From positions 41,975-105,974 of the IMG/VR virus record IMGVR_UViG_3300012956_000012: a stretch of DNA of 64,000 nucleotides; one strand, written 5' to 3'. The position numbers were made by a program, and so were the translations under genes. The first letter of the stretch is position 1. Each line of letters opens with the position of its first letter. Positions 55,085-57,798 of this stretch are shown here, one piece after another. A model generated the notes under the pieces. That model saw nothing but the letters and a program-made list of their open reading frames with translations, had not been told where the DNA came from and searched no databases. Source of the DNA: a virus. Lineage: Duplodnaviria > Caudoviricetes.

Positions 55085-55825
55085 ATGAATTATTTTAATT
55101 TTAAGATCTCCTCAAAGCAAGGAGAATTTTACCAAAGCAGCAGCACACCTCAAGAAGGTTATCAAGCTGTAGAGTATGGAACGCCAGTAAAGACTACGTA
55201 CCATAAATACTATAAAAGTTTAGCAGGTACTGTTAATTCTTTTGGTGTTAAAGAAGTACAATACGAAGGAAAGACTTTGAAGTTTTTACAGTTATCATTG
55301 AAAGATGGTGAGAATTTGTATCAGATTTCAGTTACCTTAAACAACCAAAAAGGTACTAACTATTCTGATGAAGCAAAAGCCTTGATTGGAGCTATGCGTG
55401 GATACAAAGCTGGAGAGCCGGTAAGAGCGTCAGTAAGTTATAAAACTACTACGTCGGCTAATGGTAAAGAGTACAAAAACTGTAATTTCTATTTGAATTA
55501 CGAAAACATTAAAAACGATGCTGGCAAAAATGCTTCGACCGGTTATATTCCTTTCGATGAAATTCCACGAGCTGAGGTTGAGGAAGTGGCAGGAGAAAAA
55601 TCTTACACATTCAAAGCACAGAAAAATTTCTACTACGGAATTTTAATGGAGTTATCTGAGAAGTTTAAGTTCGAATCTGCTCCAGCTATGAGTCCTGCTC
55701 CAAGCTCAACAGCTGAACCTTCTCCAACAGGTAATGCTCAACAGCCAGTAGTAGCTTACCAACAGGAGGCACCTCCAGCAGCGGCGGCAATACCTACTGG
55801 CCAAAAAGATGACTTACCATTTTAA
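55085..55825 (+). CDS. ssb: Single-stranded DNA-binding protein
   Basis: P/A/Q-rich linker and acidic C-terminal DDLPF tip; highly expressed codon style. Confidence 0.75.
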   Translation: MNYFNFKISSKQGEFYQSSSTPQEGYQAVEYGTPVKTTYHKYYKSLAGTVNSFGVKEVQYEGKTLKFLQLSLKDGENLYQISVTLNNQKGTNYSDEAKALIGAMRGYKAGEPVRASVSYKTTTSANGKEYKNCNFYLNYENIKNDAGKNASTGYIPFDEIPRAEVEEVAGEKSYTFKAQKNFYYGILMELSEKFKFESAPAMSPAPSSTAEPSPTGNAQQPVVAYQQEAPPAAAAIPTGQKDDLPF

Positions 55826-55834
55826 ATAATGGTA

Positions 55835-55927
55835 GTGGATGTATCTCAGTCCGGTAGAGTACTGCTCCCTATTATGTAGGGGATAAATAATGGCAGGAGG
55901 TCATTGGTTCGAATCCAATCATCCACA
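55835..55927 (+). ncRNA. tRNA-like RNA with a 25-nt expanded anticodon loop
   Basis: Acceptor GTGGATG/CATCCAC, D arm with GG, anticodon stem CTGCT/GGCAG, and T arm ATTGG-TTCGAAT-CCAAT. Confidence 0.8.
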
Positions 55928-55929
55928 CT

Positions 55930-56172
55930 ATGGAAAATCAATTAGAAAGAGAGATCTCTTATGGAGAGAAAGCAGTGGGGATTACATTTAATCCAGGTAA
56001 CAGTGATGAGGTATACAAGGTAAAAGCTTTGTGTGCCGAATTAATTAACCAAATGAATGACTTGCGTTTAGCAACCCGTAATTCTGAGCAAACACGCTTA
56101 GGATCTATCGCAATTACAGAATTGCAAACAGCTCAAATGTGGTGTGTAAAAGCCATTACTTGGCAAGATTAA
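55930..56172 (+). CDS. Acb2/Tad1-like helical-hairpin protein (candidate nucleotide-signal sponge)
   Basis: GEKAVGITFNP...VKALCAELI...RLGSIAITELQTAQMWCVKAIT pattern. Confidence 0.6.
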   Translation: MENQLEREISYGEKAVGITFNPGNSDEVYKVKALCAELINQMNDLRLATRNSEQTRLGSIAITELQTAQMWCVKAITWQD

Positions 56173-56176
56173 AATT

Positions 56177-56353
56177 TTGATCGTGGCGGAATTAGACGCT
56201 ATTACATATTAGATAAGACACACCGAAACAAGGCGGACGGCGACACCTGGTGAGTTAACACCTACCAGTCTTTTTGGACTGCAAATCCAAAAAACTCTAA
56301 TATGTAACTTGGAGAGCTCAGGCTTACTACAGGTTCAAGTCCTGTCGATCAAA
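56177..56353 (+). ncRNA. tRNA-scaffold RNA with a large insert in place of the anticodon arm, containing an internal Cys(GCA) anticodon hairpin
   Basis: Acceptor TTGATCG/CGATCAA, D arm GCG-GAATTAGA-CGC, 12-bp helix 56202-56213/56296-56307, and T arm ACAGG-TTCAAGT-CCTGT. Confidence 0.75.
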
Positions 56354-56360
56354 ATTAAAA

Positions 56361-56529
56361 AGATACGTGGCCGAATTTAAGGCATGTTAGTTACACTATT
56401 GATGATCTGCATTTATGCAAACCTTCAACGAGGTCGGGAGGATCACTTTCTCAGGTCAGAAGATCCGTAACCTTGGGAACCCGTAATAGTAGTTTCTAGA
56501 GCTTGCAGGTGAAAGTCCTGTCGTATTTT
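56361..56529 (+). ncRNA. tRNA-scaffold RNA with a large structured insert
   Basis: Acceptor AGATACG/CGTATTT, D arm GCC-GAATTTAA-GGC, helix ACTATTG/TAATAGT, and T arm GCAGG-TGAAAGT-CCTGT. Confidence 0.7.
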
Positions 56530-56539
56530 TAACTAAAAT

Positions 56540-56613
56540 GCCCCCGTAGTTCAGCTGTATAGAACAACATTTTTCTAAAGTGAAGGTCCCAGGTTAGAGT
56601 CCTGGCGGGGGTA
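56540..56613 (+). tRNA. tRNA-Arg (UCU)
   Basis: Cloverleaf with acceptor GCCCCCG/CGGGGGT and anticodon loop TT-TCT-AA. Confidence 0.85.
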
Positions 56614-56630
56614 CTACCATACATAAAGTA

Positions 56631-56727
56631 AAGGCTTTACATGGAGTAGGTAACGTGTAAAGATCAGTGGAGGAATAACTCTGAAATCCAAAGGCTGCTG
56701 ACCGACCTGTATAGGAAATAGCCTTGG
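56631..56727 (+). ncRNA. Candidate ~95-nt structured RNA between two tRNAs
   Basis: Helices CTTTACATG/CGTGTAAAG, TCAGT/GCTGA, TGGA/TCCA, CCT/AGG and AAGGCT/AGCCTT. Confidence 0.45.
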
Positions 56728-56732
56728 TAAAC

Positions 56733-56814: not shown

Positions 56815-56872
56815 CTAACATAAAATATGCGCAATATCATAGTTAAAGATATTATGCAAAATATATGATAAT

Positions 56873-57097
56873 ATGAAAAATTACGTAGTTGGAATACTTT
56901 CAATGTTTGAAAATAACTTAAAGCTGTTTAAAGTCTCAGCTGATAATGAGTATGAGGCTGTCAAAAAAGGAATGCTCATATTTAGCAATAACGATAGTAA
57001 TGAATTAGAATGGCAGAATTCAGACGACTATCCAAAAGACATGGAAGGATTAATTACAGCGTATGAAGAACTTCCGTTCGATGTTATGGAAATTTAA
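56873..57097 (+). CDS. Hypothetical acidic protein inside the RNA cluster
   Basis: 74-aa ORF with an AT-rich upstream region. Confidence 0.6.
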   Translation: MKNYVVGILSMFENNLKLFKVSADNEYEAVKKGMLIFSNNDSNELEWQNSDDYPKDMEGLITAYEELPFDVMEI

Positions 57098-57102
57098 AAC
57101 AC

Positions 57103-57477
57103 TAGCATGAGGTAGCCGACCCTCACACATTTTAAACAAAAAAGGATTCACAGTTGGAGAACTGTGCGGACGGGCTAAACATTTATCCCTTGTACTCATC
57201 ACTGACATTAGTGTCATAAGTGTTACATAAAGATATCAGACGTAATTCTGAACACACCGGTACCTTGAGAAAGTACCACTGAACAAAGGCCAAGAATGAA
57301 ACCAAGCCCGAAAGGGACGGAATACACAGTACGGACGGTGTGAATGAGATCTCAGCAAGTGAATAGGGACCAGATACGCAACTGGCACGGGATTTCTCTC
57401 AGGTAGAGATATTCACATGACCCTACTCTAAGAGGCCTACACTTTTAATGTAGAGAGCCTGTAGAAAGAGGGTGCTA
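57103..57477 (+). ncRNA. Candidate large (~375 nt) structured non-coding RNA
   Basis: No ORF in the track. Closing helices TAGCA/TGCTA and CCCTC/GAGGG, with about ten internal helices. Confidence 0.65.
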
Positions 57478-57523
57478 ACATGTTGATTTAGGTAAGCCTT
57501 GGCAGTGGGTGTAACTGTCAATT

Positions 57524-57597
57524 GGTCTCATAGCTCAGTTGGTCAGAGCGTCAGACTCATAATCTGAGGGTCGCAGGTTCAAGTCCTGCTGGGATCA
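57524..57597 (+). tRNA. tRNA with CAT anticodon (Ile2-like; elongator Met not excluded)
   Basis: TCAGA-CTCATAA-TCTGA anticodon arm with canonical D and T arms. Confidence 0.9.
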
Positions 57598-57603
57598 CTA
57601 AAT

Positions 57604-57751
57604 AGCTGTGTAGCAGTTGAGGTCGCGCCAAAAACTGTGAGTGGGATAGTAGGAAGCTTAAATGCACCATGCTGATGTTATGACGTCTTTATTCGGTGAT
57701 GGCATTGCAAGATAGACTGCTACGTCGTATGTTCGATTCATACCACAGCCA
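57604..57751 (+). ncRNA. tRNA-like RNA (acceptor stem plus T arm) with a ~110-nt insert
   Basis: GCTGTG/CACAGC acceptor, GTATG-TTCGATT-CATAC T arm, TAGCAGT/ACTGCTA helix and an internal hairpin at 57661-57706. Confidence 0.7.
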
Positions 57752-57767: not shown

Positions 57768-57798
57768 AAAGTGCGGCGAAAGTTGCACTTTTTCTTTT
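57768..57798 (+). terminator. Intrinsic terminator closing the ssb-RNA operon
   Basis: AAAGTGCGGC-GAAA-GTTGCACTTT followed by TTCTTTT. Confidence 0.75.

Follow-up and report, generated by a model that had tools for sequence, protein, structure and literature searches.

The DNA analysed here (hereafter the window) covers 64 kb at the right-hand end of a 105,974-bp IMG/VR virus record that is ~70% complete. Genes of the window include those for a large terminase, for virion proteins, for a PhoH-like protein and for a repair exonuclease of the T5 type. The region of interest sits in a + strand operon together with an SSB-like gene (55085-55825), three canonical tRNAs called by ARAGORN (Arg-UCU, Leu-UAG and a CAU tRNA) and a strong terminator at 57768-57798. 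Between tRNA-Leu and tRNA(CAU), the RNA that we describe occupies the gap from a 74-aa ORF (56873-57097) to the tRNA(CAU), a tRNA-Met, at 57524-57598 (+ strand; found by both ARAGORN and Rfam). An earlier interpretation made from the letters alone (the sequence-only reading) had placed a multi-domain structured RNA at 57103-57477, in an ORF-free stretch of the tRNA cluster, and both the location and the lack of coding potential hold up: no + strand ORF of at least 25 aa is present in 57098-57523, and gene callers place no ORF at this site in any relative. A 15-codon ORF at 57296-57343 (ATG...TGA, with AAGG six bases upstream), which falls wholly within the conserved segment termed core B below, is probably not a peptide gene; nucleotide identity there is complete, silent sites included, as fits constraint on the RNA better than selection for a peptide. 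No promoter specific to the RNA is evident.

Several further tRNA-related elements share the island (related contigs and loci are given below by L numbers). Four tRNA-like RNAs that ARAGORN does not call (56173-56356, 56357-56540, 57604-57751 and 55835-55927) have extended acceptor stems and normal T arms, with large inserts or an expanded loop in the position of the anticodon arm, and one of them carries a perfect tRNA-Cys-type anticodon hairpin borne on a stalk; for the second to fourth, homologs can be recognised in L084, L086 and L089, which are more distant phages. An 80-aa ORF (55930-56172), whose start codon comes straight after a tRNA with an expanded anticodon loop, matches the Acb2/Tad1 hairpin domain (PF24729, Pfam E 4.8e-11) and is kept in the close relatives L083, L091, L092 and L098. 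The ORF-free spacer between tRNA-Arg and tRNA-Leu (56615-56732, ~118 nt) contains blocks conserved at 73-83% identity at the equivalent site in L086 and L089, and is probably another small structured RNA. Finally, the heptamer CGGACGG occurs only three times in the 64-kb window (56234, 57167 and 57332), always on the + strand and always in the tRNA island, where chance would give 0.44 copies and 1 of 100 shuffles reaches three; two of these copies lie inside the RNA, the second of them reading UGGACGG in L100.

Taken by itself, the RNA region has a GC content of 45-47% vs ~35% around it and an excess of A on the + strand. The sequence-only reading had named a folding energy no better than that of shuffled sequence as grounds for giving the RNA up, and on the + strand of 57103-57477 this is what we obtained (z = -0.90, with 20 of 100 shuffles equally good), so that by the reading's own standard this check failed the RNA. 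The reverse strand of the same interval folds with a better score (z = -2.21), and two terminator-like hairpins lie at the left end on the minus strand. Because the folding energy is no better than shuffled, the case for the RNA rests on comparison between related phages. Searches against known families agreed with the inspection by eye, in that no match to tmRNA, RNase P RNA or a group I intron, nor to any other non-tRNA family in Rfam, appeared even at E<=10: covariance models returned only tRNAs from the window, at the gathering threshold and at E<=10, and only tRNAs from 4-6 related loci at E<=1. Membership in the GOLLD or ROOL families was rejected on the same cmscan results (window at E<=10, relatives at E<=1).

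Relatives were reached by searching with the SSB-like and exonuclease protein sequences and then inspecting the contigs that encode the closest matches; for these proteins the matches cluster at 91-97% identity, and the next ones are at 68% or lower. Besides the window, eight related metagenomic contigs carry the RNA element, and those named as carriers are L083, L096 (identical to L097), L100, L113 (identical to L114) and L112, the last covering only the 3' tail. Including the window there are five distinct versions of 425, 502, 525, 571 and 584 nt (alignment A3). Two further close relatives, L091 and L092, are 94.5% identical to the window on both flanks and are without window positions 56867-57571, hence without any of the conserved cores. 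At this place (L091:3051-3691) they have a 61-aa ORF, a 111-aa HNH/NUMOD4 endonuclease and a tRNA-like element with the acceptor UCUCCGU/ACGGAGA and a normal T arm, instead of the 74-aa ORF, the entire RNA and the greater part of the CAU tRNA. The insert has the look of a homing-endonuclease cassette of the free-standing type within the tRNA island. Since two such close relatives do without it, the RNA is dispensable.

Beyond this group we found no copy. Among GenBank phages, blastn with the window and L113 versions gave only tRNAs and chance-level pieces, including a 66-nt, 79% match in the coding A1 gene of DT57C and DT571/2 that we treated as chance. The 81 IMG/VR loci reached through the exonuclease, the 74-aa ORF, the downstream ORF or the SSB-like gene contain no copy of the RNA, exact and degenerate pattern scans found none in IMG/VR or in GTDB genomes, and the 11 matches of the pattern scan in JGI metagenomes were all chance occurrences in GC-rich contigs. 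A five-sequence nhmmer profile run against 114 loci detected, beyond the lineage, only the 3' hairpin, weakly, in L086 and L089. These two distant loci and L094 have comparable RNA-rich tRNA islands and no recognisable homolog of cores A and B, and the short words that they have in common with the RNA fall in different local folds. Among the databases searched, the RNA as recognised by its sequence thus appears confined to one narrow lineage of near-identical uncultured phages. Calling it a new large non-coding RNA class, as had been suggested, agrees with the lack of an Rfam match but is generous for an element with five versions in one narrow lineage and two relatives that do without it.

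Comparison of the versions also set the boundaries. Similarity begins exactly after the stop codon of the upstream ORF, whichever ORF is there (the 74-aa ORF in the window and L113, an unrelated 67-aa ORF in L083), and extends to 57520, with 3 nt then remaining to the tRNA; the conserved unit is therefore longer than the interval 57103-57477 first proposed, which leaves out 57490-57520 and with it an invariant hairpin at 57500-57520. A tRNA or tRNA-like element follows the RNA in every version, and the cores are all present, in one order, in each contig that covers the site except L091 and L092, where all are absent. Where the exonuclease gene next to the RNA diverges by 9-15% between versions at third codon positions, we counted differences at 0-3 of 110 sites in core B, 3-7 of 93 in core A and 0-2 of 34 in the 3' tail, so that conservation of the cores is 5-10 times that of synonymous sites.

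Alongside this conservation the predicted pairs covary. The RNAalifold consensus of the five versions has 100 pairs, with 96% of cells paired, and 14 pairs have changed on both sides, compared with 0-2 in slid controls (partner shifted by 1-3 columns) and with none of 500 shuffles reaching the count; this is a sample of only five versions from a single narrow lineage, and some of the 14 changes stem from arms that have been swapped, where aligned columns do not reflect true homology. Clean compensatory changes are found at U57154-A57161 (to C-G), A57420-U57473 (to G-C), C57423-G57470 (to A-U), A57430-U57462 (to U-A) and G57434-C57459 (to A-U), and the V2 arm of relatives also has a C-G to A-U change, in its first hairpin (L113). 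One-sided changes at 57150/57165, 57261/57275 and 57502/57518 yield G.U, where the minus strand would have A.C, so the RNA strand is the +, and a minus-strand RNA was rejected because G.U results on the + strand only. All helices that show covariation are local.

The fold can be followed from 5' to 3', and every helix listed in the sequence-only reading is at least present in the sequence. The outermost helix, P1, pairs CUAGC at 57102-57106 (+ strand) with GCUAA at 57474-57478 in the RNAalifold consensus; four of its pairs are invariant and the fifth is C-G in L100, L096 and L113 and C.A in the window and L083. The TAGCA/TGCTA closing helix drawn previously survives in four of its five pairs, which are invariant and consistent with it, but is better drawn as CUAGC 57102-57106 with GCUA(A/G) 57474-57478; P1 is consistent with the data and unproven. 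In contrast, the second proposed closing helix, CCCTC/GAGGG, does not stand. GAGGG (57468-57472) belongs to the helix ACCCU 57420-57424/AGGGU 57469-57473, in which G57470 changed to U in L096 and L113 is compensated at 57423 and U57473 changed to C in L100 is compensated at 57420, and CCCTC (57121-57125) actually closes a local hairpin at 57108-57125 (UGAGG/CCUCA with an 8-nt loop), whose stem is invariant in all five versions and whose loop has one C to U change in L113. Core A, the 5' domain (57096-57194), further contains an A-rich single-stranded run, the heptamer at 57167-57173 and the hairpin CACAGUU-GGAG-AACUGUG (57149-57166), a helix on which the earlier reading was well founded: U57154-A57161 is C-G in L083, and four of the five versions have G.U in place of A57150-U57165. 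Of the other pairings it had proposed, GGAT/ATCC is broken in L083 and falls in a loop in L096 and L113, and CTCAT/ATGAG has no 5' partner in L096 and L113, and neither can be kept.

The middle of the RNA alternates between variable and fixed parts. Arms V1 and V2, delimited by comparing versions, make up 57195-57252. V1 (57195-57235; hairpin 57203-57216) has its TGACA/TGTCA stem lengthened by an 11-nt insertion in L083 and L100 and is replaced in L096 and L113, and V2 is a 16-nt hairpin in the window (57236-57251) and an 85-95-nt two-hairpin arm in all other versions. Core B follows (57253-57360), with a GAGA-capped hairpin at 57259-57277, the hairpin CCC-GAAA-GGG at 57307-57316 and the heptamer at 57332-57338. 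Its sole stem change is A57275 to G in L100, turning a U-A pair of the GGTAC/GTACC helix into U.G, and L096 and L113 have a single-base deletion at a predicted bulge; the same deletion abolishes a perfect 10-nt palindrome, UGAGAUCUCA (57343-57352), that is present in core B of the three other versions. The helices CACACCG/CGGTGTG and CCC-GAAA-GGG and the possible long-range pairing CGGGCT/AGCCCG, all from the sequence-only reading, are invariant, and the last two are mutually exclusive. Neither P1 nor CGGGCU/AGCCCG ever varies across the versions, and a single closed fold thus lacks covariation.

Variable arm V3 (57359-57416) is closed in the window by the 7-bp helix GUGAAUA/UAUUCAC and contains the hairpins CCAG/CUGG and UCUC/GAGA; other versions have a different closing helix at the same site, which upholds this proposed stem. 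In L096, L100 and L113 the position is taken by an 80-nt tRNA-shaped module, whose 9-bp closing helix includes two G.U pairs. The module also has a D-like arm, a 6-bp arm ending in a loop of 5 nt, and a T arm (GCAG-UUCGAAU-CUGC) with the canonical T loop UUCGAAU. Neither ARAGORN nor the Rfam tRNA model at E<=1 calls this module as a tRNA; compared with one, its would-be anticodon loop is 5 nt instead of 7, its closing helix is 9 bp and it has a 3-nt linker. The 3' domain (57420-57473) nests ACCCU/AGGGU, UCUA/UAGA, AGGC/GCCU and CUACA/UGUAG with four compensatory changes (A-U to G-C and G-C to A-U in L100; C-G to A-U and A-U to U-A in L096 and L113). Comparison therefore bears out both AGGC/GCCT, through its G-C to A-U change, and CTACA/TGTAG; in L096 and L113 the inner hairpin gives way to a two-hairpin junction and the outer helices are retained. 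The P1 3' strand adjoins this domain with zero intervening bases. The nearly invariant 3' tail (57490-57520) consists of the hairpin AGG-UAAG-CCU and of UGGCAGU/ACUGUCA with the loop GGGUGUA, in which a G.U is G-C in L113; the distant phages L086 and L089 have other stem letters in this last hairpin (57500-57506 with 57514-57520). Overall four arms vary between versions and the cores are fixed, and each swap retains a closing helix at the same site.

Taken together, the covariation and the purifying selection establish, at the level of sequence comparison, that 57098-57523 encodes a structured, functional non-coding RNA on the + strand, as the sequence-only reading had held. For what kind of RNA it is, our main reading, which we hold at about even confidence as a whole, is a single + strand unit that is transcribed with the operon, matured by RNase P and acts in trans. 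One ~377-nt unit would be closed by P1 and followed by the conserved 3' hairpin, the whole would be transcribed within the SSB/tRNA operon, and a cut by RNase P at the 5' end of the downstream tRNA (57523|57524) would free its 3' end. This route of 3' maturation is suggested because the RNA nearly abuts the tRNA (a tRNA-like RNA in L100 and L112).

The alternative that survives best supposes small RNA modules in a row, namely hairpins, a 54-nt 3' domain and a tRNA-shaped module, each folding by itself, separated by cleavage of the transcript and swapped like cassettes; we hold it at about half the confidence of the main reading. It is in keeping with the local nature of every helix supported by covariation, with the independent exchange of four arms among near-identical phages and with the several separate tRNA-like RNAs of the same island. 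However, a phage has either all of the conserved cores, in one order, or none of them, the swaps are insertions at helix tips that keep their closing stems between invariant flanks, as expected of arms on one scaffold, and no gap separates the 3' domain helix from the 3' strand of P1. For these three reasons a single unit appears most likely.

Rather improbable, in our estimate, is a cis-acting element without a function of its own, that is, a leader of the tRNA or a 3' UTR of the upstream ORF that sets processing, stability or the timing of release. The RNA does lie almost against the tRNA, a tRNA or tRNA-like element comes next in every version, and its own promoter is not evident. Yet the RNA is unchanged behind two unrelated upstream ORFs and in front of three different downstream elements (two tRNA(CAU) alleles ~80% alike and one tRNA-like RNA), L091 and L092 keep a downstream tRNA-like element without the RNA, and a leader of 380-580 nt with elaborate arms would be a large one.

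Two further explanations we regard as very unlikely. The region could be a spacer without function, built from decayed tRNA genes and the scars of recombination in a hypervariable island, a view with which its dispensability in L091 and L092, its mosaic make-up, the non-significant MFE z-score and the narrow distribution all agree; it is strongly disfavoured because the cores are conserved, at 5-10 times the level of synonymous sites, and because the pairs covary, with compensatory changes accompanied by strand-specific G.U changes. Just as unlikely is a signal at the level of DNA or single-stranded DNA, for example a site of replication or priming or a hotspot for recombination, recognised through hairpins in the single strand. 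Genes for SSB, RecA and exonuclease are nearby and G.T is also tolerated in DNA hairpins, but the element lies within a tRNA operon on the transcribed strand and ends at the 5' end of a tRNA, and it has GNRA-type loops and, in some versions, an arm with a canonical T loop. Least credible of all is a strongly diverged known catalytic RNA (RNase P RNA, a group I intron or tmRNA) missed by the covariance models: although a size of ~375 nt with ends that close, variable peripheral arms and GNRA loops is reminiscent of RNase P RNA and group I introns, cmscan at E<=10 was empty for such families and for introns over the region, neither ARAGORN nor Rfam found a tmRNA in the window, no P4 motif of the type GGAAAGUCC is present in the sequence, and no gene is interrupted, the upstream ORF ending in its own stop and the downstream tRNA being intact.

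Returning to the single trans-acting unit, what it does can only be sketched. We speculate that the RNA accumulates as a stable species of the same kind as GOLLD, ROOL and T5 RNAX, that its conserved core might bind a host or phage factor, and that the interchangeable arms, among them a tRNA mimic in some versions, could tune or bait that interaction. An accessory role in interaction with the host fits because the RNA is dispensable, because it lies in a hypervariable island beside an Acb2/Tad1-like gene, and because its arms are exchanged, among phages only 4-6% apart. As a conjecture, it is possibly a decoy or scaffold for tRNA-recognising factors. Searches for other partners or activities gave no complementarity >13 nt to antisense targets in the phage record, no Ro60 or RtcB gene in the record, which is ~70% complete, and no known ribozyme signature in the RNA. 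More ambitious, and in our view unlikely, is the idea of a new modular family of phage RNAs in which a ~250-nt conserved core carries swappable arms, a tRNA mimic among them, that trap or mislead host factors acting on tRNAs, or in which the RNA self-assembles in the manner of GOLLD and ROOL. If this were true, the trapped factors could be, for example, anticodon nucleases of defence systems, and the rapid swapping of arms among 94-96% identical phages would bear witness to an arms race at the level of RNA. Large structured RNAs beside phage tRNA genes are abundant, elaborate and still unexplained, and the present one is small enough for easy probing, modelling and imaging. It also comes with a natural experiment, in that near-identical phages have five arm combinations or none, which separates the core from its exchangeable parts, and, given a host, matched phages with and without the RNA would offer a handle on what such RNAs do.

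Stable RNAs other than tRNAs have precedents in phage tRNA clusters. The tRNA cluster of phage T4 produces RnaC and RnaD (species 1 and 2), stable non-tRNAs that are co-transcribed and co-processed with the tRNAs, and which at ~120-140 nt are far smaller than the RNA described here. YrlA-type bacterial Y RNAs, some of which are phage-encoded, have an embedded tRNA-like module without a working anticodon arm (PMC4201824); the present RNA differs in being much larger and in having its tRNA-like arm as an optional part outside the core. Identity as a Y RNA was rejected, as the 106-kb record (~70% complete) lacks a Ro60/TROVE gene (PF05731) and no Rfam match was found. GOLLD and ROOL are large, ornate phage and prophage RNAs that form nanocages as seen by cryo-EM (bioRxiv 10.1101/2024.12.08.627333). 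Similar to the RNA described here, which also adjoins tRNA genes, they are phage-encoded and often lie near tRNA islands. GOLLD moreover combines a conserved with a variable part and sometimes has tRNAs in its variable linker, much as fixed cores are here combined with varying arms, one of them tRNA-shaped. In contrast to GOLLD and ROOL, however, our RNA is smaller and gives no covariance-model match at E<=10.

The rnaX of phage T5, a misc_RNA annotated as a 'stable RNA with unknown functions' (GenBank AY543070, 40848-41566), offers several further parallels. Both RNAs are phage-encoded, ORF-free, structured and located in a tRNA island, and the 3' end of each abuts or nearly abuts a tRNA (a tRNA-Arg in T5, 40848 vs 40847; here 57520 vs 57524), so that the T5 annotation would imply the same release of the 3' end by RNase P that we propose. 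T5 RNAX also contains a T-arm-like element, GUAGGUUCGAAUCCUAC, which here has a counterpart only in the V3 arm of L096, L100 and L113. The two differ in that RNAX is 719 nt with its own annotated promoter, whereas the RNA here is 425-584 nt and its promoter is not evident. No similarity to T5 rnaX was detected by nhmmer with the A3 profile, and the best blastn piece is 16 nt (E 0.18). As a separate observation, T5 rnaX (L115, ~1116-1136, - strand) has an identical 21-nt word, AAAAGGTAGGGAGTCATGACC, in common with L094 (5338-5358) and also with L095; in L094, whose exonuclease is 68% identical, it lies in the insert of a tRNA-like gene, and it is absent from the window. This word may represent a module common to T5 RNAX and the RNAs of these tRNA islands. 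Judging from these sequence features, and without detected homology, the RNA of the window resembles GOLLD, ROOL and T5 RNAX in kind.
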